Positions 499-44,711 of a stretch of 48,476 nt of DNA are shown one piece after another. The stretch's first letter is position 1; the number at the start of each line of letters is the position of its first letter. The position numbers and the translations under genes were made by a program. Where the stretch lies: positions 1-48,476 of IMG/VR virus record IMGVR_UViG_3300037423_001743; one strand, written 5' to 3'. The notes under the pieces are model-generated. The model ran no database searches and was not told the origin of the DNA. It saw only the letters and a list, made by a program, of their open reading frames with translations. The stretch is from a virus. Its lineage: Duplodnaviria; Caudoviricetes.

Positions 499-1416
499 TC
501 AGAGGTCGCCCATCACGTTCACCCGGTCGTACGCTCGCCTCGCCCTCGCGGAACGCGCGGACGCGCCGTAGTGCCGCAGCATCTGAGGTGAGTCCCAGCC
601 GTTCAGCTCCATCAGGTCACCCTCCGCGCCGCCGGCGTCGAGCCAGTTGTGGCTGAACGTGTGCCGGAACATGTGCGGGTGGATGCGCAGGCCGAGCCGC
701 TCGCCGCGACGCTCGATGACCTGGTAGATACCCGACCTGGTCATGGCGACCCGGCGACGGACACCGAGCCACAGCGCGTCAAGGCCGGCTGCCGGGTGCT
801 CCGCCCGCTTCCGCAGGTACCGGTCCAGGGCGAGCGCGCACTTGTGGTCGAACTTCACCTGCCGGGACTTGCCGCCCTTGCCGGTCACCACCGCGGTCCG
901 GTCCTTCACGTCAACGTCGGCGACCCGCAGGTGGGTGATCTCCGACAGGCGGCAGCCCGTGCACGCGAACAGGCGCAGCAGCGCCGCGTCCCGGCGGGAT
1001 TCGAAGTCCCGGCCCGCCTCGGCGTCCTTGATCAGCCGGCGCATGTCCTCGATGGCCAGCACCTGCACCATCTTGGTGCCCAGCTTCGGCGCCGTCGGCG
1101 GCTTGAACCGGTCGTACGGGTTCGCGATCTCCTCCTCCTCGGCCAGCCACTTGAAGAACGCCTGCAGGCAGCGGCCGATGTTGTTGCGGTACGACTGCTG
1201 ATAGTCCAGGCCGGCCATGTGGACGAAGAACTGGCGCAGCTCGTCCCGGCCCACCTGCGGCCAGCGGCGCGCGCTCGTCTCGGCGGTGAGCCACCCGGCG
1301 AACCAGCGCACCGCATCGAGGTACATCTCCCGGGTCCGGGCGCTACGGCCGCCGGAGAGCATGTCGATCTCGAACGAATCGATCAGCGGCCCGAAGGCGC
1401 CGACGTCGCGCGGCAC
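499..1416 (-). CDS. int: Tyrosine integrase
   Basis: Catalytic motifs TGCRLSE, GKGGK, HPHMFRH, LNGW, RHYG. ORF is open to 1509, but GTG 1416 with an upstream GGGGA is the preferred start. Confidence 0.93.
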   Translation of the reverse strand: MPRDVGAFGPLIDSFEIDMLSGGRSARTREMYLDAVRWFAGWLTAETSARRWPQVGRDELRQFFVHMAGLDYQQSYRNNIGRCLQAFFKWLAEEEEIANPYDRFKPPTAPKLGTKMVQVLAIEDMRRLIKDAEAGRDFESRRDAALLRLFACTGCRLSEITHLRVADVDVKDRTAVVTGKGGKSRQVKFDHKCALALDRYLRKRAEHPAAGLDALWLGVRRRVAMTRSGIYQVIERRGERLGLRIHPHMFRHTFSHNWLDAGGAEGDLMELNGWDSPQMLRHYGASARSARARRAYDRVNVMGDL

Positions 1417-1484
1417 ATGTCCCCGTCGGCCCGGCACGGCATCCCTCAATCCGATAGGCGAATCGTCTCTGAGCGATTGAGCCA

Positions 1485-1506
1485 ACCGTATCAGGGTAGA
1501 TACGGT
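1485..1506. promoter_or_regulatory. Putative repressor operator upstream of integrase
   Basis: ACCGTATC-AGGGTA-GATACGGT palindrome; same CGTATC-N6-GATACG consensus as sites in the repressor/cro intergenic region. Confidence 0.75.
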
Positions 1507-1542
1507 CAAGGATCAACTGTGTTTGTGCAGGTGAGGCTATAT

Positions 1543-2258: not shown

Positions 2259-2690
2259 TCAGCCAGCCCTGCGGCGGCCCTCTTCGTCGTGTGCCTCCTG
2301 GCCGGCCAGGAACCGGAGGTAGTCCAGCCACTGCGCCTTGCGCCGGGAGTCGACCTTCGGGTCCTCGAGTATCGCGATCGCGTCCTCGGTCGTCGCATGG
2401 AACGCCCGCGCCGTCTCCGGCGGCAGGCCCATCTCCTCCTCGGTGACGTACCCGAGCAGCACCGGGATCCGCCGCGGATCCAGTCGCAGGGCGATGAAGA
2501 TGGCACGCGCCTTCTCCGGCTCGGGCGCCTTGGTCTTCGCCTGCTCGTACCGGTTGATTGTCGGCCGGCTGACACCCGCGCGCTCCGCCAGGTCGTCCTG
2601 GCTCCATCCGCGGTACTCCCGCGTCGACCTGATGAGGGCGGCGAACCGGCGTAGCGGGTCGTCCTCATCGAGCGGCGGTTCGAGTGTCAT
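2259..2690 (-). CDS. Immunity repressor, XRE-family HTH
   Basis: REYRGWSQDDLAERAGVSRPTINRYE HTH; divergent from a Cro-like gene. Confidence 0.88.
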   Translation of the reverse strand: MTLEPPLDEDDPLRRFAALIRSTREYRGWSQDDLAERAGVSRPTINRYEQAKTKAPEPEKARAIFIALRLDPRRIPVLLGYVTEEEMGLPPETARAFHATTEDAIAILEDPKVDSRRKAQWLDYLRFLAGQEAHDEEGRRRAG

Positions 2691-2724
2691 GACTCCAGAG
2701 TATGGCAGGTCAGATACGTTGCCT

Positions 2725-2940
2725 CGTATCACCCCTGTTACATATCGGCTCTGATACAGACGCCCTGGTCCCATGCGCTACCCCCTTGCAGCCCCTACTC
2801 CGTCCCACGTTACAGAGTGACATAGATCAATAGCTGCACGAAGACTAACCGTCTGCCCTCTTGCGTATCAGACTTGATACGTGCATGCTCGTATCGTGCT
2901 TGATACGCAGACGCCCACGGAGGGCATCATGACTGATACG
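2725..2940. promoter_or_regulatory. Lysis/lysogeny switch with operator array CGTATC-N6-GATACG
   Basis: Perfect copies at 2864-2881 and 2890-2907; degenerate copies at 2725-2742, 2741-2758, 2923-2940; AT-richer intergenic region. Confidence 0.8.
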
Positions 2941-4243: not shown

Positions 4244-4444
4244 ATGACCGCGCCCGTCACCACCACCGAAGAAACCGTGCAGGGGCTCCTCGACGTCTGG
4301 GAAGCCAGCCTCCACCACATGGACGCCGTCGAACTCGACCACGAAGCGCAACGCGTCGAGCTGTACCGGAAGTCCCCAATGGCCGACCGGATGCGCGCCG
4401 CCATCGACACCGAACGAGCCGCCCGGAACGGCGGTGCGGCATGA
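4244..4444 (+). CDS. Hypothetical protein
   Basis: Fills the gap; ATGA overlap with the methyltransferase. Confidence 0.65.
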   Translation: MTAPVTTTEETVQGLLDVWEASLHHMDAVELDHEAQRVELYRKSPMADRMRAAIDTERAARNGGAA

Positions 4445-5166
4445 ACTACCTGTCGCTGTTCTCCGGCATCGGCGGCATCGACCTCGGCCTCGACCGCGCC
4501 GGCATGACCTGCGTCGGCCAGGTCGAGAAGGACCCCTATTGCCGATCTGTCCTTGACCGCCACTGGCCGGGAGTACCTAAACATGACGACGTTCACACAG
4601 CCTCGGCATGGTGGCTGGAAAAGACCCGGCCTGCCGTTGACCTGGTCGTCGGTGGATTCCCATGCCAGGACATCAGCAACGCCCACACCAACGGATCACG
4701 TCTTGCACTCGAAGGCCGAAAATCCGGGTTGTGGCGCCTCTTCGCCGACATCGTCGAGGCAGTCGGACCAGGCTGGGTCCTCGTCGAGAACGTCGGCGCC
4801 TGGAGGCGATGGGTGCCCGGCGTGCGGCGCGATCTCCACAATCTCGGGTACGCCAGCCTGCCAGTTCAGGTGTCCGCCGGTAGCGTCGGCGCTCCCCACA
4901 AGCGGCCCCGTGTCTTGGTGGTGGCCCACGCCAACAGCCAAGGCGAACCACTGCGCGCCATCCATGCGGAAGTGGCCGGCCTACGCCCGCTTCCAAGAGG
5001 TGGCGGGTACTGGCGGGGCACCCAACCCCGAGCTCTTCGAGTGGCTCATGGGGTTCCCGGGCAGATGGACCGACTTAGGGCCCTCGGCAACGCCGTCGTC
5101 CCCCAGGTCGCCGAGCGCATCGGACGGCTGATCCTCGCCCACGCCGAACAGGCGGTGACGGCATGA
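4441..5166 (+). CDS. DNA (cytosine-5)-methyltransferase, large subunit
   Basis: Motif I LSLFSGIGG, IV GGFPCQD, VI LVENV, VIII PHKRPRVLVVA, X RALGNAVV. Confidence 0.92.
   Translation: MNYLSLFSGIGGIDLGLDRAGMTCVGQVEKDPYCRSVLDRHWPGVPKHDDVHTASAWWLEKTRPAVDLVVGGFPCQDISNAHTNGSRLALEGRKSGLWRLFADIVEAVGPGWVLVENVGAWRRWVPGVRRDLHNLGYASLPVQVSAGSVGAPHKRPRVLVVAHANSQGEPLRAIHAEVAGLRPLPRGGGYWRGTQPRALRVAHGVPGQMDRLRALGNAVVPQVAERIGRLILAHAEQAVTA
4910..5131 (+). CDS. Nested alternative-frame peptide carrying C5-MTase motif IX (putative small subunit)
   Basis: +1 frame encodes WPTPTA...PNPELFEWLMGFPGRWTD; frame open from 4553; start uncertain (GTG 4910 candidate). Confidence 0.6.
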   Translation: MSWWWPTPTAKANHCAPSMRKWPAYARFQEVAGTGGAPNPELFEWLMGFPGRWTDLGPSATPSSPRSPSASDG

Positions 5167-7416: not shown

Positions 7417-8213
7417 CCAGCGTCGAGGCATTCATGAGCGCGGCGCCGGCGAGCCCTGGAGGCAGCAGCCCCTGGGCCTCGCGGTACGCGGGCGAGCTCC
7501 GGCGGGTGGTGACCGATCAGGCGCGCGGCTCGGCCCGGAACCTGCAGCGGCATCTCGGCCCCAGCGAGCTGGGTGTGCCGTGCGACCGGCAGGTGGTCGG
7601 GAAGCTGGCCGGCCTGCCGGTCACCAACCACGTGGTGGACCCGTGGCCGTCGATCGTCGGTACCGCGGTGCACGCCTGGCTGGCCGACGCGTTCACCGCG
7701 GCCAACGCGCTGCTCGGGCAGGCGCGGTGGCTGGCCGAGCAGCGCGTGGTGCCGCACCCCGACCACGCCGGAACGGCCGACCTCTACGACGCAGCGGAAA
7801 CGGCGGTCGTCGATCACAAAGTGCTCGGCGAGTCCAGCATGGCCAAGGTTCGCAGCGCGGCCGGGCCGCCTATTCACTACGTCATTCAGCTCCTGCTGTA
7901 CGGCAAGGGCTACCGAAATCTCGGGCTGCCGGTGACGCGCGTCGCGCTGGCCGCCTATCCCCGCACGGCCGCCTCTTTGGACGGGCTCTACGTCTGGGAG
8001 CGGGCGACGGGGCCGCAGGACGACGCGCTGATCGACGAGGTTTTCCGCCTCACTGATCGACGTAAGGAAATCGCACGGCAATTGGTGAGCGGGCAGATCG
8101 CATTCACTGACATTCCCATTACAGCTGACGACGACCTCTGTTTCTTCTGCCCGTTCTACCGCCCACAGTCCAAGCGCGACAACGGACCCGGATGTCCCGG
8201 GCCCATCCACTGA
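7413..8213 (+). CDS. Cas4/RecB-like PD-(D/E)XK exonuclease
   Basis: LGPSELGVPC, GTAVH, GTADLYD, VVDHK, QLLLY, and C-terminal CFFC...GC Fe-S ligands. Confidence 0.85.
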   Translation: MTSVEAFMSAAPASPGGSSPWASRYAGELRRVVTDQARGSARNLQRHLGPSELGVPCDRQVVGKLAGLPVTNHVVDPWPSIVGTAVHAWLADAFTAANALLGQARWLAEQRVVPHPDHAGTADLYDAAETAVVDHKVLGESSMAKVRSAAGPPIHYVIQLLLYGKGYRNLGLPVTRVALAAYPRTAASLDGLYVWERATGPQDDALIDEVFRLTDRRKEIARQLVSGQIAFTDIPITADDDLCFFCPFYRPQSKRDNGPGCPGPIH

Positions 8214-8222
8214 GGAGAGCAG

Positions 8223-9050
8223 ATGCAACCGCAGTACCCCGCCCAGTACCCGACCCAGCCGCCGATGCCGCAGTACCCCCAGCAGCCGGCGTACCCGGCC
8301 CCGCAGGGCTACCCGCAGCAGCCGGCGCCCACCTACCCCCAGGCCTATCCACAGCCGCAGTACGCCCCGCCGGCGCCGCCGGCCCAGCCCCTGCCGACCG
8401 GCACCCTGGACACCTTCTACCAGCAGCCCAGCTCCGGCGGCGGACCGTCGTTCAAGTTCATGGACGCCAACCGCCAGCCGCAGATCGGCAAGCACTACGA
8501 GGGCTTCGTCGCCCGGCCGGTCACCGACGCCGACGTGCGCGCGCAGACCGATCAGAGCGGCAACGTGCAGACCTATCGCGACGGCCGGCCGAAGTTCGTC
8601 ATGGTCGTGCCGATGCAGGTCCAGCCCTCCCCGGAGTTCCCCGAGGGCCAGGCCGGCTGGTGGGTCAAGGGACAGGCCCGCGACGAGCTCGCCCGGGCCA
8701 TGGCCGAGGCCGGCGCCCCAGCCGGCGCCCCCGAGGCCGGCGCGTTCATCCGCGTCACCCTCGTCAGCGTGCGGCCGATCCCGGGCCGGAACCCGGCCTA
8801 CCAGTACCGGGTGGACTACGTCCGGCCCGGCAACCCGGCCCCGGCGCCGCAGCCGGTACAGCAGCCCGTCGCGGCCCCGGTGATGCAGCAGGCGCCGGTC
8901 CCTGCGCCGATGCCGCAGGCCGTTCCTCAGGTGCCGGTGCCGCAGCAGGTTCCGGCACCTGCGCCCGCCGCAGCAGCCCCCGCAGCGGCGGGCTTCACCC
9001 CGGAGCAAGCCGCCCTCTTCGCCAAGCTCACCGGCGCCCCCACCGGCTGA
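8223..9050 (+). CDS. Putative ssDNA-binding protein with Pro/Gln-rich termini
   Basis: RBS GAGGAG; beta-rich central domain (PSFKF...DGRPKFVMVVPMQ...WWVKG) next to exonuclease; QPQYP repeats. Confidence 0.55.
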   Translation: MQPQYPAQYPTQPPMPQYPQQPAYPAPQGYPQQPAPTYPQAYPQPQYAPPAPPAQPLPTGTLDTFYQQPSSGGGPSFKFMDANRQPQIGKHYEGFVARPVTDADVRAQTDQSGNVQTYRDGRPKFVMVVPMQVQPSPEFPEGQAGWWVKGQARDELARAMAEAGAPAGAPEAGAFIRVTLVSVRPIPGRNPAYQYRVDYVRPGNPAPAPQPVQQPVAAPVMQQAPVPAPMPQAVPQVPVPQQVPAPAPAAAAPAAAGFTPEQAALFAKLTGAPTG

Positions 9051-9063
9051 GCGGGCGACTGTC

Positions 9064-9098
9064 CGGCCCGGGCGTCCTTGCCCCTGCGCCCGGGCCGG
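9064..9098 (+). terminator. GC-rich hairpin after the putative SSB gene
   Basis: CGGCCCGGGCG...CGCCCGGGCCG inverted repeat; no strong U-tract. Confidence 0.45.
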
Positions 9099-9148
9099 GC
9101 GGTGACCTTCTCGGCCCACCCCAACTCGATGCACACGGAGGTGCCCCG

Positions 9149-9664
9149 ATGAACCGTCTCCTGATCCGCCTGGCACTGGGCGCCGGTTACCTCGGCACCA
9201 TCGTGGCCGCCAACTGGGCAGTTGCCCGGTTCGGCACCGTGGCGGTCGGCCTCGGTCTGGTCGCGCCGGCCGGTGTCTACTTCGCCGGGCTGGCCTTCAC
9301 CCTGCGCGACCTGCTGCACGAACTGGTCGGCTGGCGCGCCGTCTTCGCAGTGATCGCCGCCGGCGCTGCCCTGTCCTTCTGGGTCGCCACACCCTCGCTC
9401 GCTCTCGCGTCGGCCGCAGCCTTCGGTCTGTCCGAACTGGCCGACCTGCTGGTGTACGCGCCGCTGCGCCAACGGCGCTGGCTGGTCGCGGTTGCGCTGT
9501 CCAATGTGGTCGGCCTGCTGGCCGATTCGGTGCTGTTCCTGACGCTCGCCTTCGGGTCGCTCACCTTCCTACCTGGTCAGGTCATCGGGAAGGCCTGGAT
9601 GACGGCGCTGGCCGTGGTGCTGCTGGCCGCCGGGCGCCGGGCGTACCGCAGACGGACGGCCTGA
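9149..9664 (+). CDS. yhhQ: VUT/YhhQ-family queuosine-precursor (preQ0/preQ1) transporter
   Basis: IVAANW, FTLRDLLHE, ASAAAFGLSELADLLVY, SNVVGLLADSVLFLTLAFG motifs; multi-TM; RBS GGAGG. Confidence 0.85.
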   Translation: MNRLLIRLALGAGYLGTIVAANWAVARFGTVAVGLGLVAPAGVYFAGLAFTLRDLLHELVGWRAVFAVIAAGAALSFWVATPSLALASAAAFGLSELADLLVYAPLRQRRWLVAVALSNVVGLLADSVLFLTLAFGSLTFLPGQVIGKAWMTALAVVLLAAGRRAYRRRTA

Positions 9665-10437
9665 TGGAGACCTTCTACCTAGGCACGCACCAGCCCGGCT
9701 GGCTCAACTGGGCCGGGGTGCCGCTGTTCGTCTCCGACCGGCGCCTGCGTCGGTATGGCCAACTGCCGCGGGTAGCTGCGCCGTGGGCTTTGGACTCCGG
9801 CGGCTTCACCGAGCTGTCCACCCACGGCACCTGGGACCACGGGCCAACCCCTCGGGAGTACGTCGACCGGATCCATCGGTACCGGGACAAGATCGGCCAG
9901 CTGGACTGGGTTGCACCTCAGGACTGGATGTGCGAGCCCTTCATCCTCGCCAAAACCGGCCTCTCCGTACGCGATCACCAATGGCGGACCGTCGAGAACT
10001 ACTTCACCCTGACCAGCCTGGCGCCCGACTTGCCGATCATCCCGGTACTGCAGGGCTTCGAGCCGCACGAGTACATGGAGTGCGTCGACTTGTACGCCAG
10101 CGCAGGCCTTGACCTGCGTGACCAGCCGCTAGTCGGCCTCGGGTCGGTCTGCCGCCGACAGGGCACGGAGGCAGCCGAGCGGATCGTCAAGGCACTGCAC
10201 TCGCGCGGTATCACCCGCCTGCACGGGTTCGGCGTCAAGAAGCTCGGGCTGCAGCGGTTCGGTCACCTGCTCACCTCCGCCGACTCCCTCGCCTGGTCGT
10301 TCGACGCCCGCCGCTCCGCGTTGTTGCGCGAGTGCGTCGGTGACCGGCACAAGAACTGCGCCAACTGCCCACGGTTCGCCCTCGCGTGGCGCTGCGACCT
10401 GTTGGCAAGCCTCCAACCGAGGGCGGTGTCGGCATGA
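9664..10437 (+). CDS. dpdA: DpdA-like (TGT-fold) 7-deazaguanine DNA transglycosylase
   Basis: LDSGGF, PQDWMCEP, PVLQG, VGLGSVC, LHGFGVK, SADSLAW, C-terminal CANC; coupled to yhhQ. Confidence 0.85.
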   Translation: METFYLGTHQPGWLNWAGVPLFVSDRRLRRYGQLPRVAAPWALDSGGFTELSTHGTWDHGPTPREYVDRIHRYRDKIGQLDWVAPQDWMCEPFILAKTGLSVRDHQWRTVENYFTLTSLAPDLPIIPVLQGFEPHEYMECVDLYASAGLDLRDQPLVGLGSVCRRQGTEAAERIVKALHSRGITRLHGFGVKKLGLQRFGHLLTSADSLAWSFDARRSALLRECVGDRHKNCANCPRFALAWRCDLLASLQPRAVSA

Positions 10438-12990: not shown

Positions 12991-13208
12991 CCGACGACGC
13001 GGTCAACCACCCTCGGCACTACACCGCCCACCCGAGCGGCGTCGAGTGCATCACGATCACCGAGCACATGGGCTTCAACCTCGGCAACGCGATCAAGTAC
13101 ATCTGGCGGGCGGACCTCAAGAGCGACGCCGTCGAGGATCTGCGCAAGGCGGCCTGGTACGTCAACCGGGAGATTGAGCGACGCACCCGTAGCGGTGATG
13201 GCACGTGA
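12987..13208 (+). CDS. DUF3310 (SaV-like) protein
   Basis: DAVNHPRHY, FNLGNAIKYIWRA, EDLRKAAWY. Confidence 0.88.
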   Translation: MTDDAVNHPRHYTAHPSGVECITITEHMGFNLGNAIKYIWRADLKSDAVEDLRKAAWYVNREIERRTRSGDGT

Positions 13209-16200
13209 CCCCCGAAGAGATGTCCGCGCTCGACGTCGCGCGTCAGCTCGCTGCGGCCGGCATCCCGATCTTCATCGCGCAGCCGGACAGCTCGACCAAA
13301 ACCGGGTATCGCCCGCCACCCCGCTGGGAGCGCACGGTCCCGGACCCGGCAATCGTCGATCTCTGGCGGCCGGGTCTTGCGCTGTGCGCGGTGATGGGGT
13401 GCGGGCTGGACCTCATCGACTTCGACCCGCGCAACGGCGGCAACCCGTCTGCGCTCAACGGCATGACACCACGGTTCCACGGCCTGGCCTCCACACCGTC
13501 GGGTGGCGCGCACGGCTTCATCGCCTCCCTGGGCGTCGGCAGCCGCGACAACGTGTTGCCGGGTATCGACGTCAAGGGCGGCACCCCCGAAGGGTCGAGC
13601 CGCGGATTCGCGTTCATCGCCCCCACCGTGCGGGTCAGCGCGGTCACCGGCGAGCCGGCCGCCTACCGGTGGGTGCAGGCTCCCGCCCTCGGCCAGCTCA
13701 ACGGGGATGTGTCCGGGGCGAACCTGGCCGCCCGGATCCGCGAGCTGCGCACCTCCACCGAGACGGCGCGCGGCGTCGGCGGGCCGCAGTGGTGGCAGGA
13801 CTTCATGGCCCAGCGCGAGCCACAGTCCGCGCCCGCGGCCGAGAAGGCGATCGAGGAGAAGCTGGCCGAGGTCGTCGCGTGGACCACGGAGTCCGGCACC
13901 GGATTCCGAACAATCCTGCTGCGCGCCGCGCTGACCCTCGGCGGGTACGTCGGCGGTGGCTACCTCGCCGAAACCGACGCCCGCGAGCGCCTCGAGAAGG
14001 CGGTCGAGACCGTGTGGGGCACCCCGGACACGGATGACCTGCTGTGGATCCAGCAGGGCCTGGATGACGGCGCCGTACGCCCCTTCTACGTGTTCACCGC
14101 CGAACAGGAACGCACCCACTCCGAGGCAGCCCAGGCGGTTGCCCGCGAAGGTGAGGCGCCCCCGACCGCGGAGCCGCCCGCAGAACCGCCGTGGACGGTG
14201 TTCAGCGCGCTGGGTGTCGAGCCGTTCGACCCGGCCGGCGACACCTCCGACCAGGGACTGGCCAAGGCGGTCGCCTACCGGATGTACCCCGCGCTGCGGT
14301 ATGCCAAGGACGCCGGGCTGTGGATCAAGCGGGAGCGCGACGTCTGGGACGAGTGCGCCGACGACATGTCCGATTGGATCGTGTCGCTGCTGGCCGAGCT
14401 GATGCCGCTCGGCGAGACCCCCGTCCCGAAAGACGTCACCCAGCGCACCGAGCTGCACTGGCAGGCGGCCCGCCGCGCGACGTTCATGAGCTCGGCGGGG
14501 ACCGGGAAGATCGGCCGGAAGTTGCGGGCCATCATCCGTAGCGACCACCCGGCCTCGCTGCGTATCTCCGACCTGGACACCAACCCGGAAGTGCTCTGGG
14601 CAGGTGGTATTCCGTGGGACCTGCGCGCGTCCGGGGAGGTGCCGACACCGGCGATGTGGGTGGATCCCAACACTCCACACCTGCGCACCGCCCTGTGCGC
14701 GCCCGACCCGAGGGTCATGACGCCTCGCTGGGACGCGTTCGTGGCCGCCGTACTGCCGGATCCGGAGGTCCGGGCGTGGGCGCTGCGCGTGCTGGCCATC
14801 GCGCTGACGGGCTACCCGGACGCCGCCCTGCCGATCCTGTACGGGCGGGAACGGTCGGGTAAGACGTCGCTGGTCGAGATGCTGGTGACGGTGCTTGGTA
14901 GCTACGCCCACGCCGCCAACCCGAAGCTGCTGAGCTCACAGGACAACTCGCACGACGCGATCATCTACGACCTGCGCGGACGCCGGCTTTCGTTCATCGA
15001 CGAAGGCCCCAAGCGCGGACACGACGCGACCGAGCGGCTCAAGCAGCTCACCGGCGGCGGCTCGCTGACCGGCCGGCCGATGCGCGCCAACCCGGTCACC
15101 TTCACCCCCAACCACACCCTGGTCATGACGACCAACCCTGAGCCGAACCTGACCGATCCCGCGCTACGCGCCCGTGTGCGGCTGATCCCGTGCGACAGCC
15201 CAGAGGAGGTCGTCAAGCCGCTGCGGGTGCGCCTGCTCGGAAACGGGTTGGTCACCGAGGCGCCGGGCATCCTCGCCGCGATGATGCGGGAGACCGCGGC
15301 GTGGCTGGCCGACCGCGACACCGCCGCCACCTCGGCCGCGCCGATCAGCATCCGCGGGCTAGCCGACGAGATCGCCGCCGGTCAGGACCCGGTGCAGGAG
15401 TGGGTGGAGACGTGCACGGTACCGACGACGCCGGGCACGCAGAGCCGGATCCTCTACAGCCAGCAGTTCGCCCGCTGGCACCAGGACCACCCGCGCTACC
15501 GGCGTCTGTCCCTGCCGACCGAGACCGCGTTCGGCCGCCGGCTGACCGAGCTCGGCTACCCGGCCGCGCGGCACGAGAACGCCAATTACCGACCACTGTC
15601 CGTGTTGAACGGAGGCGGCCACGGGGTCACACCGCAGCCGCCGAGTACCGCCGCATTCATGGCTCCGGCTGGAGGGTTGCTGGAGGGTTCCTGGAGGGTT
15701 CTGGAGGGTTCTGCCGCGAACCCTCCAGGGGTAGAAACCCCAGCTCAGGGCACACTTTCTGATAGGTCCCTGGAGGGTCTGGAGGGTTTTCCTCTACTAC
15801 AAGACACAAACTCACAAAATATAGAGGTACAGAAAAATACACAGGGAAAGGTGGCGAAACCCTCCACCCTCCAGCCGTCCACCCAAAAGGGTGGTCTGAC
15901 CTCGGATAACCCCGCTGATGGAGGGTTGGGGGGCAACCCTCCAGAAACCGCGCAGGCGACCCTCCCGGGCATGGAGGCGGAAGGCCCCTCTCGGCGGGCT
16001 GATCCGACTACAGGCCGTTACACCAAGGCAGCGCAGAAGGCCGCGGAGAAGGAGGCCGCTCGGCGGGCCGCCGCGGGTGAGTCGGTGCCGTTGCCGGTCT
16101 CGGTCGACCGGGCCGGTGTGATCGCCCCGCTCGACCCAGTCGGTGCAGCTACCGAGATCGTGGCGGCGGGTGCTCGGTCCGGCGCACTCACGGTGGACGT

Positions 16201-17899
16201 CGAAACCTCCGGCTACCCGGTGGGTCACCCCGACTACGCGCTGCGCACCGTCCAGCTCGGCGACGAACAAGCCGCTGTGGTGCTCGATCCCGCCGATTCC
16301 GAGCAGGCCGCGGTGATCCGGCAGGCCTTGGAGGCGTGGCCACGATTGCACGCGCACTCCGCGACTGCAGACCTCGTGCCGCTCGTGCACGCCGGCCTGG
16401 TTGGCGAGGCATGGGCGTGGCAGCGGATGCACGACACGGTGATCCCCGCCAAGCTGGCCGACCCGCAGTCCACCAGCAGCGACCCCGGCCTCAAGCAGCT
16501 CGCTGAGGCGGTCCTCAACGGTTCGGCTACTGCACCCACCGCCGACAAGGCACGCGCTGCCCTGTTCAAGGTCAACGGCTGGCTGACCGACACCAAGCCC
16601 ACGACGCCGCTGGAGCGGTCCGGCTGGGCCCAGGTCGACTCGACGTGCGCCACGATGATCCGCTACGCGGCCAGCGACGTGCTCGACACCGCGGCACTCG
16701 CTGTCCGGCTGCCGCAGCCGCCGGCCGAGGTGGTCGAGCGCGAGCGTGCCGTGCAGCGCATCACCGCCCGGGTGGCGTACCGCGGTGTCCGGGTGGACCG
16801 CGACCAGGTCGCCCGTCTCGAGGCCGAGCACACCCCAGCCATGCAGGCCGCCGCTGAGCGGGTCCGCGCGCTGGGTGTCGAGAATCCCGGCAGCGACCGG
16901 CAGCTGGCCGACCGACTGACCGAGCTGGGCGTGACGCTGCCCCGCACCGCGCCGAGCACCCGCCATCCGGAAGGGCAAGCCAGCGTGGCAGCCGGCGTCC
17001 TGGAAGGACTGCGTGACGCACCTGAGCGGGCCGTAGAGCTGATTTCAGCCGTCCTGGACTACCGGCACCACGAGACCGTCCTGACGACGTTCCTGGAGCC
17101 GTACCGGGTGCTCTGCGAGGCGGGCGACGGCCGGGCCCGGCCCACGGTCTACACGCTCGGCACCGATACCGGCCGGATGTCCTGCGTGCGGCCCAACCTC
17201 CAGCAGTTGCCGCGGCAGGGCGGCGTGCGCGCGTGCATCACCGCAGACCCCGGCCACGTGCTGGTCTCGGCCGACTTCTCCGGTGTGGAGATCCGGGTGA
17301 TGGCGGCGCTGAGTCAGGATCCCAACCTGGTCAAGATCCTGGCTGAGGGCGCCGATCTGCACGCCATGGTCGCCGAGCAGGCGTTCGGACCGGAGTTCAC
17401 GAAGGCCGACCGGTACACCGCCAAGCGTGGTGTGTTCGGGTGGGCGTACGGCGGTGGTGTCCCGGCGCTGGCCCGCCAGGTGGGCGTCCCCGAGTCGACC
17501 ATGGCCGCCATCGTGGACTCCCTGCAGCTGGTCGCGCCGCAGTACGTGGCCTGGGCCGACGAGGTCAAGCGGCAGGTACGCGCCGGCGCCACCCAGATGC
17601 CCACCTATGCCGGCCGGACCATCCACCTGCCGCGTGAATACCCCCATAAAGCCCCGAATTACTGCATCCAGGGCACGGCCCGGGAACTGCTGGTGGACGC
17701 GCTGCTCGACTGGGATCAGACCCGCTGGGGCGGTGGTGTGGTGCTGCCGGTCCACGACGAGATCGTGGCCGTGGTGCCCGAGCAGGACGCCGAGGAGGCC
17801 ACCACGGCCTTGGTGGGCTGCATGAGCCGTGAGCTCTACGGAATCTCGATCGTTGCGGAGGCGAGCCAACCGGCCTTCGCCTGGCGCGACTCGGCTTGA
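13205..17899 (+). CDS. Multidomain replicase: PrimPol + D5/SF3 helicase + 3'-5' exonuclease + family A DNA polymerase
   Basis: PrimPol LIDFDPRNGG, STPSGGAH; SF3 YGRERSGKT, FIDEG, VMTTN; exonuclease VDVETSG, YAASDV; PolA ADFSGVEIR, RYTAKRGVFGWAYG, PVHDEI; one uninterrupted 1564-codon ORF. Confidence 0.9.
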   Translation: MTPEEMSALDVARQLAAAGIPIFIAQPDSSTKTGYRPPPRWERTVPDPAIVDLWRPGLALCAVMGCGLDLIDFDPRNGGNPSALNGMTPRFHGLASTPSGGAHGFIASLGVGSRDNVLPGIDVKGGTPEGSSRGFAFIAPTVRVSAVTGEPAAYRWVQAPALGQLNGDVSGANLAARIRELRTSTETARGVGGPQWWQDFMAQREPQSAPAAEKAIEEKLAEVVAWTTESGTGFRTILLRAALTLGGYVGGGYLAETDARERLEKAVETVWGTPDTDDLLWIQQGLDDGAVRPFYVFTAEQERTHSEAAQAVAREGEAPPTAEPPAEPPWTVFSALGVEPFDPAGDTSDQGLAKAVAYRMYPALRYAKDAGLWIKRERDVWDECADDMSDWIVSLLAELMPLGETPVPKDVTQRTELHWQAARRATFMSSAGTGKIGRKLRAIIRSDHPASLRISDLDTNPEVLWAGGIPWDLRASGEVPTPAMWVDPNTPHLRTALCAPDPRVMTPRWDAFVAAVLPDPEVRAWALRVLAIALTGYPDAALPILYGRERSGKTSLVEMLVTVLGSYAHAANPKLLSSQDNSHDAIIYDLRGRRLSFIDEGPKRGHDATERLKQLTGGGSLTGRPMRANPVTFTPNHTLVMTTNPEPNLTDPALRARVRLIPCDSPEEVVKPLRVRLLGNGLVTEAPGILAAMMRETAAWLADRDTAATSAAPISIRGLADEIAAGQDPVQEWVETCTVPTTPGTQSRILYSQQFARWHQDHPRYRRLSLPTETAFGRRLTELGYPAARHENANYRPLSVLNGGGHGVTPQPPSTAAFMAPAGGLLEGSWRVLEGSAANPPGVETPAQGTLSDRSLEGLEGFPLLQDTNSQNIEVQKNTQGKVAKPSTLQPSTQKGGLTSDNPADGGLGGNPPETAQATLPGMEAEGPSRRADPTTGRYTKAAQKAAEKEAARRAAAGESVPLPVSVDRAGVIAPLDPVGAATEIVAAGARSGALTVDVETSGYPVGHPDYALRTVQLGDEQAAVVLDPADSEQAAVIRQALEAWPRLHAHSATADLVPLVHAGLVGEAWAWQRMHDTVIPAKLADPQSTSSDPGLKQLAEAVLNGSATAPTADKARAALFKVNGWLTDTKPTTPLERSGWAQVDSTCATMIRYAASDVLDTAALAVRLPQPPAEVVERERAVQRITARVAYRGVRVDRDQVARLEAEHTPAMQAAAERVRALGVENPGSDRQLADRLTELGVTLPRTAPSTRHPEGQASVAAGVLEGLRDAPERAVELISAVLDYRHHETVLTTFLEPYRVLCEAGDGRARPTVYTLGTDTGRMSCVRPNLQQLPRQGGVRACITADPGHVLVSADFSGVEIRVMAALSQDPNLVKILAEGADLHAMVAEQAFGPEFTKADRYTAKRGVFGWAYGGGVPALARQVGVPESTMAAIVDSLQLVAPQYVAWADEVKRQVRAGATQMPTYAGRTIHLPREYPHKAPNYCIQGTARELLVDALLDWDQTRWGGGVVLPVHDEIVAVVPEQDAEEATTALVGCMSRELYGISIVAEASQPAFAWRDSA
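15669..15944. other. Putative replication origin (iterons + AT-rich tract) inside the replicase linker
   Basis: Eleven TGGAGGGT copies in both orientations around an A-rich tract at ~15790-15850. Confidence 0.75.
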
Positions 17900-17915
17900 G
17901 GAGACCGGAGTTACT

Positions 17916-18536
17916 GTGACCCTGCTCGACCAGATCCGGGACGTTGCGGATGCGCTCACCGAACCCCACATCCACAGCGAACCCGTCCGCTACTGGGACA
18001 ACAACCGCAACCCCAAGATCCGCCAGCACCGCACCGTCCAGCCTGGCCTCCTCGCCCAGCTGTACCAATCCGTCATCCCCGTCTTGTCCAGTGCAGAACC
18101 CGCGGCCGGTGGCGTACCGGGCAGCCGGCCACCCCTCGCCGTCGAAGCACTGTCCCGGCACGACACCATCGCGATGGCGGTGTTGCGCTGGTGCCGAAGC
18201 CTCAACCTCACCTTGAGGGTTTCCGTCGAATCCAACGTGCGCGCCCTCGTCGGCGCCGCCGCCACCATGGACAACGACACCGCCCGCGCTCTGCTGTCGG
18301 AGATGCGGCAGTGGCTACGCTGGTGCAACGTCCTCACCGGCTGGGAACGCCTCTACCGCCCAGCCGGCGTCACCTGCCCTGTCGTCGAATGTGGCAAGCT
18401 CAACAGCCTGCGGATCAACCTGACCAGCAGCACCGCCATGTGCCAGGCATGCGGAGCCACCTGGTCCGGTGACGACGGCACCATCACCGTCCTCGGCGCG
18501 CACATACGCGCCGTCACCAATTCCATCCCCGCATAG
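17916..18536 (+). CDS. Zinc-ribbon protein, putative late-gene regulator
   Basis: CPVVEC...CQAC; last early gene before the late promoter. Confidence 0.6.
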   Translation: MTLLDQIRDVADALTEPHIHSEPVRYWDNNRNPKIRQHRTVQPGLLAQLYQSVIPVLSSAEPAAGGVPGSRPPLAVEALSRHDTIAMAVLRWCRSLNLTLRVSVESNVRALVGAAATMDNDTARALLSEMRQWLRWCNVLTGWERLYRPAGVTCPVVECGKLNSLRINLTSSTAMCQACGATWSGDDGTITVLGAHIRAVTNSIPA

Positions 18537-23682: not shown

Positions 23683-26289
23683 ATGAGCGTCGACGCTGGC
23701 GGCCGGGTGCGGCGCGCTCTCGAGGGTGACGACTCGCTGCTGGTCACCCGCTCTGTGGCACTCGACGACATCCACGTCCGCGCGGGCGGCACCGGCCGTG
23801 ACGTGGTCGCCTATGCCGCCGTGTGGATGTCACCGGCCGAGGTCGTCGACTCCGAGGGCCACTACCGGGAACAGAACGCGCCCGACGCGATGAACAACAG
23901 CATCGCTCAGCGTGCCGGCCGGATCTACTCGGTCTACAACCACGCCAAGACACTCGCCGGCACACCGTCGGAGCTGCACTCCGTGCCGCTGGGCAAGCCG
24001 TTGGAAATCCGCGCGGACAAGACCGGCCTGTTGACCGTCACCCGGTACAACAAGGACCCAGAGGCCGACCGGATTCTGGAGGCGATCAAGTCAGGGTCGC
24101 TGACCGGCATGTCCTACACCGGGGTGTTCCTGCGCTCGGATCCGCAACTGCGCCCATTCGAGCGCTACGGCCCGGACCGGGCCGGTGAACTCCAACTGGT
24201 GACCCGGCTGGAGACGGCCCTCATCGAGTACGGGCCGACCCCGAACCCCACTTTCGCGGATGCCGCCATCGTCGGTGTCCGCAATCGGAGGCCGCAGGTG
24301 GACGAAACCGAACCGCAGGTCGAGCCGCAGGAACGGGAGATCATCACCGTTGCGGTCCGCGCGGAGGCCGCTGCCGAGCCGGTCGAGGATGACGCGGTCG
24401 AAGAGGCCGAACGGGCCCAGATGGCCGCCGCGTCGATCAATGACCTGCCCGACAGCGCGTTCGCCTACATCGAGCCGGGCGGAACCAAGGACGACCAGGG
24501 CAAGACTGTCCCACGGTCGAAGCGCCACTTCCCCATCCACGACGCCGCCCACGTGCGCAACGCGCTGGCCCGGGCGCCGCAGTCACCGTTCGGGGACAAG
24601 GCCATGCCGAAGATCCGCGCCGCGGCGAAGAAGTTCGGCATCAAGGTGTCCGACGACAGCACGACCAGCAGCTCCGGCCGCCAGAGCGCACCGGAGCATC
24701 ACCGTACCGAGCCGCACCCGCACTCGGCCGCGACCGACAACAACCAGAACAGGAGCACATCCGTGGAAAGCGACCGAGAGCACATGACGGTCGAGGAGCG
24801 GGTCGCGCGGCAGAGCGAGATCCGTACCCGGCTGGCGGAACTCGACACCGAGTACTCGGGTGCGGAGTTGCCGCAGCAGGCCCGCGCCGAGTGGACCGGG
24901 CTGCAGGAGGAGCTCGTGACCCACGAGCGGGCGATCACCGACGCCAACTCCCGCGCCGAATATCTGCGCTACATCAACGACAACAACCCGGGCGCGACGG
25001 AGCGGGTCGACAACAGCCGCGCCGGCTACAGCCAGGACGGCGGCCCGGGCGGATTCGGCAGCCGGATGGGTGCGGCGGGTCCCGCCTTCCACCAGTCGCG
25101 GGACATCTACGACCTCGCCTCGATCCGCAACCGCGCCCGGCACATCGACGAGGTCCCGGTGCTGTACCGGGAGTACGCGCAGCGTGCCGTGGAGCAGGCC
25201 CGATTCCTGAGCGCCACTGGCCAGCGGGGCGCGCCGACCAAGGAAGACGCGCAGGCGCGGGTCGCGACGCTGCTGGACACCATCGACGACGAGCACGGCT
25301 CGCTGGCCCGGCGGATCCTCGTCACCGGCTCCCCGCTGTACGAGCGGGCGTTCGGGAAGATGCTCGGCCGGCAGTCCGTCATGGGGCTGACCGCGGAGGA
25401 GTCCCGGGCGCTGTCGCTGGGCACCGACTCGGCAGGCGGCTACGCCGTCCCGTTCCAACTGGACCCGACCGTGATCCTCACCTCGAACGGTGTGGTGAAC
25501 CCGCTGCGGCAGATCTCCCGGGTGGAGACCATCACCGGCAAGGAATGGGATGGCGTCACCTCCGCCGGCGTCACGGTGTCGCGTGGCACCGAGGGTCAGG
25601 AAGTCGGCACGGGCGATCCGTCGTTCGTGCAGCCGTCGGTCCGTACCTCCCGGGTTCAGGGCTTCGTGCCGTTCAGCATCGACCTCGACGTGTCCTGGGG
25701 CGCGCTGCGCACCCAACTGACCCGTCTGCTGCAGGATGCCAAGGACGTGGAGGAGGCGACCGCCTTCGCGACGGGCAACGGCACCGCACCCAACCCGTCC
25801 GGCGTCATCTCGACGCTGGGCACCGCCAGCTGGGTGGACACCGCCGGCTCGGCCGTCCTCGCGGCTGGGGATGTCTATCTGCTGGAGAATGCGATGGCGC
25901 CGCGGTTCATCGCGAACTCGTCGATCGTCGCCAGCAAGACGACGTTCAACCGGTTCCGGTCGCTGTTCCAGGCGCAGGCGTCGTCTGCGGGTGACCCGTT
26001 CGCCCGTCCGTCCGGGTCCATGGGGGCGCAGTTCAACGGCTACCCCAAGTACGAGCTGTCCACCATGTCCACATCCATCGGCACGGGCAGCCTGATCATG
26101 CTGCAGGGCGACTTCTCCAACTTCCTGATCGTCGACCGGGTCGGCATGGGCATCGAGCTCGTCCCGCACCTGTTCGGCACGGCCAACCGGTACCCGACCG
26201 GTACCCGGGGCGTCCTGGCGCTCTGGTTCAACAGCAGCAAGATTCTGGCGGACAACGCGTTCCGCCTGCTCAGGATCAAGAGCACGTAG
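23683..26289 (+). CDS. Prohead protease-DUF6582-major capsid protein fusion (HK97 fold)
   Basis: Protease AYAAVW, YNH, GMSY, LIEYG..PNPTF; DLPDSAFAY...FPIHDAAHVRNALAR domain; capsid AGGYAVP, NPLRQI, GNGT, GDFSNFLIVDRVG. Confidence 0.9.
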   Translation: MSVDAGGRVRRALEGDDSLLVTRSVALDDIHVRAGGTGRDVVAYAAVWMSPAEVVDSEGHYREQNAPDAMNNSIAQRAGRIYSVYNHAKTLAGTPSELHSVPLGKPLEIRADKTGLLTVTRYNKDPEADRILEAIKSGSLTGMSYTGVFLRSDPQLRPFERYGPDRAGELQLVTRLETALIEYGPTPNPTFADAAIVGVRNRRPQVDETEPQVEPQEREIITVAVRAEAAAEPVEDDAVEEAERAQMAAASINDLPDSAFAYIEPGGTKDDQGKTVPRSKRHFPIHDAAHVRNALARAPQSPFGDKAMPKIRAAAKKFGIKVSDDSTTSSSGRQSAPEHHRTEPHPHSAATDNNQNRSTSVESDREHMTVEERVARQSEIRTRLAELDTEYSGAELPQQARAEWTGLQEELVTHERAITDANSRAEYLRYINDNNPGATERVDNSRAGYSQDGGPGGFGSRMGAAGPAFHQSRDIYDLASIRNRARHIDEVPVLYREYAQRAVEQARFLSATGQRGAPTKEDAQARVATLLDTIDDEHGSLARRILVTGSPLYERAFGKMLGRQSVMGLTAEESRALSLGTDSAGGYAVPFQLDPTVILTSNGVVNPLRQISRVETITGKEWDGVTSAGVTVSRGTEGQEVGTGDPSFVQPSVRTSRVQGFVPFSIDLDVSWGALRTQLTRLLQDAKDVEEATAFATGNGTAPNPSGVISTLGTASWVDTAGSAVLAAGDVYLLENAMAPRFIANSSIVASKTTFNRFRSLFQAQASSAGDPFARPSGSMGAQFNGYPKYELSTMSTSIGTGSLIMLQGDFSNFLIVDRVGMGIELVPHLFGTANRYPTGTRGVLALWFNSSKILADNAFRLLRIKST

Positions 26290-26302
26290 TCCATCTCAAG
26301 CC

Positions 26303-26343
26303 GGCAGCGCCCGTCCCCTCCCGGAGCGGGCGCTGCCTTCTAT
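26303..26343 (+). terminator. Terminator after capsid gene
   Basis: GGCAGCGCCCG...CGGGCGCTGCC followed by TTCTAT. Confidence 0.7.
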
Positions 26344-26357
26344 CCGGGAGAAAGAAA

Positions 26358-26564
26358 TTGTCCAGCATTGAGATCGAAGACGTTCAACGACTGAACGTGA
26401 AGCCGGGGGACGTGCTCCTGGTGACCGTCCCGCATGGGACGTCGGCGCAGGATGTCGACTACGTCAAGAACAAGTTCGAGACGACCCTTCCCGTCCGTGT
26501 CATCGTGAAGCCCTCGGATGTCCAGGTTGAGGTCGTCGAGGCCGATTCGGCGGTGACTCGATGA
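26358..26564 (+). CDS. Hypothetical protein
   Basis: RBS GGGAG, TTG start; ATGA coupling to the next gene. Confidence 0.6.
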   Translation: MSSIEIEDVQRLNVKPGDVLLVTVPHGTSAQDVDYVKNKFETTLPVRVIVKPSDVQVEVVEADSAVTR

Positions 26565-28438
26565 GGGTGCTCATCCATTCGAACGCACCCTGGGCGGGAA
26601 GCGGTTATGGCGGACAGACGGCACTGCTTGCCAAGCGCCTGCCCGGCCTCGGTCACGAGGTTGTCGTCTCGGCGATGAACGGCCTGGACGGCCGCCCGTT
26701 GGACTGGGAAGGCACGTTGGTGCTGCCGTCTGGGATGACGGCCTACTCGAATGACGTGATCGCTCCGCACGCGCGGATGATCTTCGGTGGCGACCCGGGG
26801 CTGGTCCTGGTCCTCTACGACGCGTGGGCGATCGACCCGAAGCCGCTGCGGGACTTCGCCACCGCGGTGTGGGCGCCGATCCAGTCGCATCCGGTACCTC
26901 CGAGTGACCTGGAGTTCTTCCGGGCGTCGGGGGCACAGCCGATCGCCATGTCCCGGTACGGCGAGCGGGAACTGGTCGAGGCCGGCCTGCAGCCGGTGTA
27001 CGTGCCGCACGCGGTGGACACGCAGGTGTTCAAGCCGTTGACCGCCGACGAGCGGGCCGCGGCGAGGGAGATGCTGGACGTTCCTCAGGACGCGTTCGTG
27101 ATCGCGATCGTGGCGGCGAACAAGGACAAGACCCCGGCTCGGAAGGGCTGGGGCGAGCAGATGTGGGCGTTCGCGCAGTTCTGCAAGCGGCACCCCGACG
27201 CGGTGCTGCTGGTGCACGGCCTGCTGGAGACCGCCGGCGGCGTGAACCTGATGAACCTGGTCTACGACCTGGGCATCCAGGACGCGGTGCAGTTCACCAA
27301 CCAGTACAAGCAGGTGACCGGGCTGTACGCCCCGGAGGATGTGGCGGCCCTGATGGGCTGCGCGGACGTGCTGTCGAACTGTTCGTGGGGTGAGGGGTTC
27401 GGCCTGCCCGTGCTCGAGGCGCAGGCGTGCGGGACGCCGGTCGTGGTCACCGATGGATCGGCTGGCACGGAGTTGTGCGGTTCCGGGTGGCTGGTGGAGA
27501 CGCAGCCGTACTGGCATCCGTTCGCGCAGTCGTGGTGGCACGCCCCGATCATCAAGAGCATCGGCAAGGCGTGGGAGAAGGCGTACAAGCAGGCCCGCGA
27601 GCCGTGGATGCGGGAGAAGGCCCGCGGGTTCGCGGTCGGCTACGACGTGGACACCGTGATGACCCAGTACTGGAAGCCGGCGCTGGAGATGCTCGAGCAG
27701 TACGCGGGCGCGGTGCCGGTGCGGCCGCCGAACCGCAACCACGGGACGATTCCGCTGCCCACCCGTGAGGCCGACGGCCTGCGGTGGATCCAGCGTGGCG
27801 GGCACACCGACGATTGGATCGCCGTCAACCACGAGGATTCGCTGGTGCCGGTGCTGGACGGCCTGCTGCCCGACGGTGGTGTGTTCGTCGATGTCGGCGC
27901 GCACATCGGCCGGTGGGCGCTGCGCCTGGCGAAGAAGGCGTCGCGGGTGGTCGCGGTGGAGGCGAACTCGGCGACCGCTGCGGTGCTGCGCGCCCACATC
28001 GCCCTGAACGACATCGAGAACGTGGACGTGCTTGAGATGGCCGCGTGGGATTCGCAGACCCGGCTGTCCCTGTCCGACCCGAACGGGAAGGTGACTGGCG
28101 GGTCCACCCGGGTCGTCGAAGCCGACGATGCCACCGTGGATGCGCTGCCGCTCGACGACGCCCTGTTCGCCGTCGATCCGGACCTGGTCAAGCTCGACGT
28201 CGAGGGCGCGGACCTGCACGCGCTGCGCGGCATGCGGGACACGCTGGCCCGTAGCCGGCCGGTCCTGTTCATCGAAGACCACAGCATCTACGGCTACTAC
28301 CAGCTGTCCGACCTGACGGACCTGCTCGCCGAGTTGGGCTACGACAGTGAGCCGTTCATGGCTTCACTGCCGGGCGGCCGGCACGCGCCGTACATCATCG
28401 CGAGACCCAAGGAGGACACCGATGGCGACAGAGCCTGA
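26561..28438 (+). CDS. GT4 (GT-B) glycosyltransferase fused to FkbM-family methyltransferase
   Basis: SGYG, VPHAVD, RKG, GEGFGLPVLEAQACGTPVV; then FVDVGAHIG, VAVEAN, LVKLDVEGAD, RPVLFIE. Confidence 0.9.
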   Translation: MRVLIHSNAPWAGSGYGGQTALLAKRLPGLGHEVVVSAMNGLDGRPLDWEGTLVLPSGMTAYSNDVIAPHARMIFGGDPGLVLVLYDAWAIDPKPLRDFATAVWAPIQSHPVPPSDLEFFRASGAQPIAMSRYGERELVEAGLQPVYVPHAVDTQVFKPLTADERAAAREMLDVPQDAFVIAIVAANKDKTPARKGWGEQMWAFAQFCKRHPDAVLLVHGLLETAGGVNLMNLVYDLGIQDAVQFTNQYKQVTGLYAPEDVAALMGCADVLSNCSWGEGFGLPVLEAQACGTPVVVTDGSAGTELCGSGWLVETQPYWHPFAQSWWHAPIIKSIGKAWEKAYKQAREPWMREKARGFAVGYDVDTVMTQYWKPALEMLEQYAGAVPVRPPNRNHGTIPLPTREADGLRWIQRGGHTDDWIAVNHEDSLVPVLDGLLPDGGVFVDVGAHIGRWALRLAKKASRVVAVEANSATAAVLRAHIALNDIENVDVLEMAAWDSQTRLSLSDPNGKVTGGSTRVVEADDATVDALPLDDALFAVDPDLVKLDVEGADLHALRGMRDTLARSRPVLFIEDHSIYGYYQLSDLTDLLAELGYDSEPFMASLPGGRHAPYIIARPKEDTDGDRA

Positions 28439-44442: not shown

Positions 44443-44448
44443 GGTGTA

Positions 44449-44634
44449 TCAGCTCCCCGCCGAGTTCTGAACGGCGATCTCCAGCCGGGCCTTCGTGGCG
44501 CGCAGCCGCTTCGACCACGGCATGGTCGGCTCCTCGAGCTCGACACCGATCAGCGCCGAGGTGGCCTGTACCTCGGCGCGCAACGTGAAGAGGCGGACCC
44601 GCAGGTCCGTACACATCTGGCAGTCCGCTGCCAT
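44449..44634 (-). CDS. Hypothetical protein (CxxC)
   Basis: RBS GGAGG; CQMC. Confidence 0.6.
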   Translation of the reverse strand: MAADCQMCTDLRVRLFTLRAEVQATSALIGVELEEPTMPWSKRLRATKARLEIAVQNSAGS

Positions 44635-44711
44635 GCTGGTGATTCCTCCGTCCCAGGGGGTTGAGGGGCGCGGCCGTGACGTGCAGGTCGGTCAGCCGCG
44701 CCCCCGCTCGG

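Follow-up and report, generated by a model that had tools for sequence, protein, structure and literature searches.

A predicted replication origin in the linker of a fused primase-helicase-polymerase gene of a temperate actinobacterial phage

The locus described here raises the question of whether a single phage gene can encode both a replisome and the site at which that replisome is loaded. The window analyzed is the virus record IMGVR_UViG_3300037423_001743 (Duplodnaviria; Caudoviricetes), 48,476 bases long, 89% complete and with a GC content of about 70%. Positions 13205–17899 of its plus strand form a single open frame of 1564 codons, in which a primase of the Prim-Pol fold, a superfamily 3 (SF3)/D5 helicase with a winged helix (WH), a linker, a 3'-5' exonuclease and a family A DNA polymerase (PolA) follow one another. 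Since genes of integrase, helix-turn-helix (HTH) repressor, terminase, portal, capsid and tail proteins are present, the window is assigned, by gene content, to a temperate tailed phage; it is a phage of soil actinobacteria. By analogy with known initiators, we estimate at about 70% the probability that this gene encodes a self-loading replicase, which binds an origin located in the gene's own linker DNA.

Linker DNA and the wing predicted to read it

The linker (aa ~801–955; 15605–16070, plus strand) is of low complexity, rich in Ala, Lys and Glu at its end, and poorly conserved as protein, being alignable in 19 of 119 homologues (~41%). The GC content at its third codon positions is 0.58, versus 0.87–0.91 in the domains. 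All 11 copies of the repeat TGGAGGGT present in the window fall within 274 bp of the linker (15670–15943); 1.34 copies were expected, and none of 100 shuffles gave this result. The first copy begins 66 bp past codon 800, spacings peak at 9, 11 and 21 bp, and the layout of the predicted origin is FFFFRFF, an AT-rich patch and RRFR (F and R being the two orientations). The patch (15786–15850), the predicted site of melting, has a lower GC content than any other 60-mer in the window (0.35, against 0.43 elsewhere). The copies occupy both strands and every one of the three codon phases. When the linker peptide was recoded synonymously 10,000 times, the number of copies averaged 0.71 and never exceeded 5; the repeat is therefore a feature of the DNA.

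Similar arrays were found in relatives. Among 56 records, at least five copies of one linker 8-mer are present in 45, the linker exceeds all control windows of the same size in 41, and the GC minimum of the locus lies within the linker in 30. Of 49 records, 48 keep the replicase frame open, which in part reflects the selection of fused loci; each of the other frames is open in 1–3 of 48. In the unfused relative L069, opposed arrays of GTGGCGGA flank an AT patch straight after the helicase gene's stop codon. In five cultured phages with separate genes (Liebe, Eden, Buldak, Percival and Shaeky), the best 8-mer arrays reach 3–5 copies. The first-pass annotation of the window had treated the linker as a mere joint, which has to be revised: with 11 opposed repeats around an AT patch, its DNA resembles an origin and is likely, judging by layout, the replication origin of the phage, translated in frame. 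Origins inside replication genes are known, for example in lambda O. Neither the order of archaeo-eukaryotic primase (AEP), SF3 helicase, exonuclease and PolA nor an origin in such a linker was found in the literature searched, subscription papers and supplements lying outside it.

The predicted origin has the layout of those of Staphylococcus aureus pathogenicity islands (SaPIs), in which 6–12 short iterons, in opposed orientation on the two sides of an AT-rich centre, follow closely downstream of rep and are bound by the WH of Rep (PMC9371898); the size of these origins is ~300 bp (bioRxiv 10.64898/2026.10.17.759575). The SaPI Reps are self-loading 3'→5' hexamers of the leading strand (PMC9371898). 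Both origins have short opposed iterons on either side of an AT-rich centre, directly behind the WH (in L069, after the stop codon), and PriRep5 of SaPI5 shares with the fused replicase the order primase-SF3-WH and a wing that reads bases, predicted in the case of the replicase. SaPIs, according to the same sources, have no fused polymerase and carry the origin past the stop codon, whereas the origin predicted here would be translated and followed by the exonuclease and PolA; it would work like a SaPI origin without being one.

The C-terminal WH of the helicase occupies aa ~728–800 (15386–15604, plus strand), with wing strands at aa 788–790 and 793–800 of the AlphaFold2 (AF2) model. Covariation of helicase residues with the repeat was analyzed in 212 WH-bearing records, which gave 80 distinct loci, 58 of which had at least five copies of one TGnnGG repeat and were tested. 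Residue 794 (N794 in the window; 15584–15586, plus strand) ranked first among 330 helicase columns for base 4, with an adjusted mutual information (AMI) of 0.54, the next column having 0.18. Among the 19 loci that carry A at base 4, 14 have Asn here, as does 1 of the 39 others (Fisher p 1.5e-8), while Lys, Arg or Trp occupies this position in all 36 loci with C and in 1 of the 19 with A. Residue 789 (R789; 15569–15571, plus strand) ranked first of the 330 columns for base 3 (AMI 0.47), with His in 29 of 33 loci carrying A and Lys or Arg in 16 of 20 carrying G. Neighbouring wing columns were near zero for base 4, which disfavours plain linkage. In a tree from which the wing had been left out, base 4 changed 13 times; seven independent pairs on well-supported branches gave 6.9 changes in the same direction and 0 in the opposite one (median p 0.016). 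In the loci L043 and L047, whose helicases are 94% identical, both wing residues and the repeat differ, one combination being TGGAGG with Arg and Asn and the other TGACGG with His and Lys.

Both residues are located on the wing strands of the model. Pairing of Asn with adenine and of Lys or Arg with guanine fits the known chemistry of base recognition. The second wing strand of the window replicase reads A793-N794-Y795-R796; in the cryo-electron microscopy structure of PriRep5 with its origin, the wing is inserted into the major groove, and its contacts with iteron bases include K777-N778-Y779-K780 (bioRxiv 10.64898/2026.10.17.759575). The predicted recognition of the repeats by the cognate wing is supported by covariation. 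The closest relatives, L002 and L004, whose helicases are 83–88% identical to that of the window, have the wing AGIKYR and the repeats GGACAGT and GGCGGGT; compared with the window, this is a case of fast switching of the predicted origin specificity.

Domains and conservation of the fused frame

The catalytic domain of the primase, of the AEP Prim-Pol fold, occupies aa ~1–184 (13205–13756, plus strand) and was assigned from an alignment, ESM features and the AF2 fold. By sequence, it is a weak domain assignment: Pfam PF09250 (Prim-Pol) matches 4 of 16 members of the N-terminal alignment (best 1.4e-11), the window replicase itself being unmatched. A search of Protein Data Bank sequences with this alignment returned chance matches only, and profile-profile comparison of the two N-terminal types was uninformative (probability 0.9%, E 0.057). 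Residues D72 and D74 (motif I, DxD), H103 (motif II) and D122 (motif III) are invariant in all 16 sequences; the names of the catalytic motifs, here and in the other domains, are those which we take to apply. PHROG 1156, 'DNA primase', covers aa 7–789, and ESM features indicate Prim-Pol for 29 of 30 matches, with a score of 0.97. The AF2 model spans aa 6–807, with a mean pLDDT of 89.2, and its residues 1–179 match the primase-polymerase of pRN1 ORF904 (Z 12.8, root-mean-square deviation 3.2, 157 aligned), which supports the Prim-Pol fold of the N-terminal domain. The primase is followed by a helical bundle (aa ~195–315; 13790–14150, plus strand), seen in the secondary structure of both models, at the place where a PriCT domain would sit.

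The D5_N-like collar and SF3 AAA+ helicase (aa ~335–727; 14207–15385, plus strand) were recognized by Pfam (DUF5906/SF3 at aa 545–648, E 1.5e-8), by TIGR01613 (C-terminus of P4-type primase), which scored above its own cut-off, by catalytic residues and by fold. Residues of Walker A (G547, G552, K553), Walker B (D599-E600) and motif C (N644) and the arginine finger R657 are invariant in 30 of 30 sequences. Model residues ~330–800 match poxvirus D5 and E5, PriRep5 of SaPI5 and the NrS-1 protein, WH included, with Z of 23–24 for E5, D5 and PriRep5 (23.2 over 388 aligned residues for PriRep5); the range aligned to PriRep5 and E5 extends to model residue 800. By its modelled fold, this half of the chain is an SF3/D5 primase-helicase with a D5_N collar, an AAA+ core and a C-terminal WH.

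The 3'-5' exonuclease domain (aa 983–1166; 16151–16702, plus strand) matches PF01612 with 25.4 bits, the cut-off being 23.6, and its residues D998, E1000, D1056, Y1154 and D1158 are the same in all 30 relatives of one alignment and all 40 of another. The Exo II motif is HSATAD, with S1052 and A1055 at the positions of the consensus Asn and aromatic residue, and so departs from what we take to be the consensus. The domain is predicted to proofread, with uncertain strength given this motif. The PolA domain (aa ~1201–1564; 16805–17896, plus strand) matches PF00476 (DNA_pol_A) at aa 1201–1543 with an E of 4e-52. Residues of its motifs A, B and C are invariant or at least 90% conserved among 40 relatives; D1357, E1362, K1407, F1411 and H1517-D1518-E1519 do not vary in either alignment (30 and 40 sequences), and F1411 presumably occupies the position equivalent to E. 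coli residue 762. PolAs of the closest cultured phages are ~33% identical to this domain. The first-pass annotation had placed all catalytic motifs of four activities in one 1564-codon frame, and the frame is indeed open, with the catalytic residues intact; its reading of the locus as a single-gene replisome is supported at the level of the gene.

The fusion is conserved. All four parts, primase, helicase, exonuclease and polymerase, are present in 118 of the 120 homologues listed (one being the window's own), in a search restricted to proteins of 860–2737 aa (975 matches among 7999 scored candidates). Since this restriction favours fused forms, the loci were examined as well. Helicase and PolA share one frame in 60 of 77 records, 8 of the 77 being duplicates; the other 17 comprise 8 fragments cut by contig ends, 5 fusions with a different helicase, 2 with a frame break within the exonuclease-polymerase part (L042 and L068) and 2 stand-alone primase-helicases (L069 and L077). 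Frame breaks of L042, L068 and L208 all lie in the exonuclease-polymerase half, and none in the linker. Among the 80 distinct WH-bearing loci, 69 have the exonuclease and polymerase in the same frame and 4 more have a polymerase of the Pas55 type. The homologues belong to temperate phages whose hosts are Actinoplanes, Micromonospora, Nocardioides and their kin; Actinoplanes, Pseudonocardia, Micromonospora, Nocardioides, Kribbella and Labedaea are among the named carriers. None of 4795 matching records of cultured phages covers 80% of the replicase, the best being separate primase/helicase and PolA genes (~29%), and no plasmid record covers 80% of the primase-helicase. A genome scan with the single sequence found nothing; alignments were required.

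Continuity of the linker was checked on assembled contigs. Positions 15500–16100 are present in one piece in X3 (34 substitutions, 0 gaps) and positions 15500–16071 in X5 (10 substitutions, 0 gaps), X3 and X5 being sequencing runs; X1, possibly the source of the window, is identical over 13000–18100. The window is an uncultured virus record and continuity rests on contigs, which would suit an artefact of assembly or gene calling that fused two genes; the gap-free linkers of X3 and X5 and the fusions in isolate genomes of Actinoplanes, Micromonospora, Nocardioides and Kribbella speak against it, its probability is negligible, and an assembly artefact is ruled out by the conservation of the fusion.

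Known fusions, module exchange and neighbouring genes

Apicoplast PREX, whose helicase we take to be of the T7 type, had been cited for comparison in the first-pass annotation. Two triple fusions of phages described by Kazlauskas et al. in 2016 are closer: 1706 gp55 (AEP, SF3, PolB) and Pas55 of phiAsp2 (DnaG-type primase, SF3, PolA) (PMC4889955). Fusion of primase, helicase and polymerase has been known since 2016, and the combination AEP-SF3-exonuclease-PolA with a predicted origin in the linker is a variant of it. Pas55 (Actinoplanes phage phiAsp2, NC_005885) likewise has primase, helicase and PolA in one chain, belongs to an actinophage and adjoins a separate helicase gene. It differs in its primase, which is of the TOPRIM type (DUF3854) and not of the AEP fold; its front half could not be aligned to the window replicase, only the PolA cores align (34% over 264 aa), and the two PolAs are far apart in the tree, Pas55 on a separate long branch. 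Neither an iteron array nor an AT patch was found in the linker DNA of Pas55. The Lactococcus phage protein 1706 gp55 is similar in joining an AEP primase, an SF3 helicase and a polymerase, and by its description is set apart by a polymerase of family B. PREX is also a primase-helicase-exonuclease-PolA polyprotein, but has a TOPRIM primase and a PolA of cluster 8 and is nuclear-encoded (PMC10201439), whereas the replicase has AEP and SF3 parts. According to Czernecki et al. (2023), PREX and AEP-PolA fusions belong to cluster 8, and the D29-like cluster of actinophages is given as having 'no known partners' (PMC10201439).

Other systems share parts of this architecture. In Liebe, Eden, Buldak, Percival and Shaeky the order of primase/helicase and PolA is the same, and the genes are adjacent or nearly so (~27–33% identity) but separate. 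The AEP-SF3-WH proteins pRN1 ORF904 and NrS-1 polymerase share the primase fold (Z 12.8) and the helicase fold (Z 19) and have no PolA; the pRN1 origin, similarly located just downstream of the gene, is a stem-loop (PMC4234260). The PolA-S3H fusions of virophages and polinton-like viruses combine PolA and an SF3 helicase in one chain without the exonuclease domain, helicase-fused and exonuclease-bearing forms being distinct, whereas the replicase has both (bioRxiv 2024.03.18.585575).

Within the family, modules are exchanged. The PolA of the window is 78–86% identical to that of Micromonospora-type loci, the helicases of which are ~50% identical and the primases unalignable, which indicates an exchange of front ends at the linker or close to it. 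Further fusion partners of this PolA clade are a second type of SF3, a front end with TOPRIM (DUF3854) and one with Prim-Pol and AAA_25, and the window's type of primase-helicase is joined to a PolA of the Pas55 type in four loci (L045, L064, L076 and L123), that of L045 being 42% identical to Pas55. By sequence comparison the family is a network of swapped modules. Examples are L025 and L176 (TOPRIM with the window's type of PolA) and L215 (Prim-Pol, AAA_25 and this PolA), whose linker has an opposed GGACAGC array. Two groups of stand-alone PolAs are nested within the fused clade of the PolA tree, a quick unrooted one of 59 of 117 sequences with fused rows subsampled. The earlier claim of independent evolution holds relative to PREX and Pas55, but within the family modules are swapped and stand-alone PolAs nest among fused ones. 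The fusion may have arisen through loss of the stop codon from a primase-helicase gene with a trailing origin, whereupon the reading frame continued across that origin into a PolA lying downstream; the linker would then be DNA shaped as an origin and merely tolerated as peptide, and front ends and PolAs would have been swapped later, apparently at the linker joint.

Some relatives contain inserts, which are likely inteins: a LAGLIDADG-bearing one in the helicase (L014, P0106) and ones of 250–400 aa in PolA (P0008, P0075, L030, L031, L050, L225). In L231 and L233, viral contigs of 117–122 kb, the exonuclease and polymerase parts of a PolA of the window's type are 1.8–2.7 kb apart, representing a split gene or an intron.

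The replicase gene starts with GTG, overlapping the TGA of an upstream DUF3310 gene (GTGA); its relatives start with MTPEE. Further upstream are genes for an exonuclease, an SNF2 helicase and a candidate that is presumably RuvC-like. Genes of single-stranded DNA-binding protein, ligase and 5'-3' exonuclease were not identified among the window's open reading frames scanned, and host factors are therefore probably still needed by the fused replicase. A tyrosine integrase (502–1509, minus strand) and an HTH repressor (2262–2774, minus strand) correspond to a temperate lifestyle. A gene for DpdA (9664–10437, E 1.6e-88) follows a frame (8192–9664) matching the Vut_1/queuosine-precursor transporter at aa ~325–483, and no genes of Que biosynthesis were found among the open reading frames scanned, which suggests deazaguanine modification of DNA from an imported precursor. 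With a C5 cytosine DNA methylase (4441–5166), the phage would have two systems of DNA modification. Positions 23683–28438 encode a prohead protease-capsid fusion (868 aa) and a glycosyltransferase-FkbM methyltransferase fusion (625 aa). At the right end (42388–45880) are genes, both on the minus strand, of an FtsK/SpoIIIE-like protein (685 aa) and a DUF2637 protein, which we take to resemble genes of actinomycete conjugative elements.

Proposed mechanism, alternatives and significance

By analogy with PriRep5, hexamers of the replicase would load through the wing of the WH on the repeats on either side of the AT patch; the two rings would melt the patch and travel 3'→5' along the template of the leading strand, with priming by the N-terminal AEP and with extension and proofreading by the C-terminally tethered PolA. 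If the rings moved N-face first, as E1 and MCM do, PolA would be located at the exit of the leading template, and spare PolAs could serve the lagging strand. A hexamer would carry six polymerases, and primer-free amplification could be possible. A stronger version of this scheme, which we hold tentatively, is that one 4.7-kb gene is a complete replicon: the intact hexamer of ~1 MDa would be initiator, helicase, primase and proofreading replicase, its own linker DNA the origin, and residues 789 and 794 would choose the repeat by a code (Lys/Arg with G or His with A at base 3; Asn with A or Lys/Arg/Trp with C at base 4), making the one-gene replicons of sister phages mutually orthogonal.

Several observations weigh against a self-loading replicase with its origin in the linker. 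The covariation test left out 22 of 80 loci (21 with fewer than five TGnnGG copies and 1 duplicate), independent pairs for base 3 did not reach significance (median p 0.125), TGGAGG is found, as an exception, with Ala in L005 and with Arg in L057, and 13 held-out loci all obey the rule, but base A occurs in one alone. As only ~100 bp separate the wing codons and the repeats, their joint transfer in one block may have added to the covariation, and N794 is taken as the counterpart of PriRep5 N778 by motif, without alignment. Linkers fail to beat the controls in 15 of 56 records, and the GC minimum is outside the linker in 26 of 56. Five of 28 linker differences from the close strain L001 are inside repeats, about the share expected by length, and three of these five affect base 4, yet Asn794 is kept. 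The nested stand-alone PolAs indicate that fusion is not required, and the direction of the history is unrooted.

The chain may act after cutting: one frame with the origin inside, whose product, ~170 kDa at full length, is cleaved in the disordered linker or supplemented from a second start, so that the active forms are a hexamer of primase-helicase and a free PolA. The poor conservation of the linker as protein, the stand-alone PolAs of the same clade, the crowding that twelve tethered PolAs might cause at one origin and the title of a cited reference, which calls Plasmodium PREX proteolytically matured, are in line with such a polyprotein. A Shine-Dalgarno sequence with an in-frame start is, however, no more frequent in linkers than in control windows (2 of 42 and 11 of 210, respectively, at -8 kcal/mol), no conserved cleavage motif is evident in the alignment consensus, and Toxoplasma Prex was seen at full length, 280 kDa (PMC8113025); we regard cleavage as unlikely. 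Less probable still is a real fusion whose repeats are operators, by which the WH or another protein represses or road-blocks the gene, or else form an accessory site, replication starting from a true origin at another place. Covariation indicates recognition and not initiation, cumulative GC skew shows no turn at the linker, single repeat copies drift in L001, and the origin of pRN1, which encodes a similar AEP-SF3-WH protein, has no iterons (PMC4234260). Against operators, the array lies mid-gene, distant from the gene start, and with opposed arrays flanking an AT patch just past the WH it agrees with the SaPI origin in number (6–12), size (~300 bp) and position. Slippage of a low-complexity peptide linker, with covariation as linkage, is very improbable: the wing and repeats do adjoin, and a comparison of the window with L001 shows no better conservation of the repeats than of the remaining linker, but copies occur on both strands and in all phases, far above synonymous recoding, one wing column stands out and its neighbours do not, and the same array is non-coding in L069.

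The fused replicase belongs to a large uncharacterized replicase family of temperate actinophages, absent from cultured phages in the collection searched. Isolates of Actinoplanes, Micromonospora, Nocardioides and Kribbella, among them Micromonospora sp. MW-13 and Nocardioides sp. Root190, carry it as a prophage, and it is thus inducible and open to study. Whether a single chain is able to run both strands of a fork, and what use a ring helicase makes of six tethered polymerases, are questions for which it is a natural test; it would likewise be a clean case of DNA bearing two codes, that of an origin and that of a peptide. If gene and origin indeed form one cassette with a readable code, it would be a candidate for a minimal or orthogonal replicon for actinomycetes and for origin-dependent isothermal amplification.

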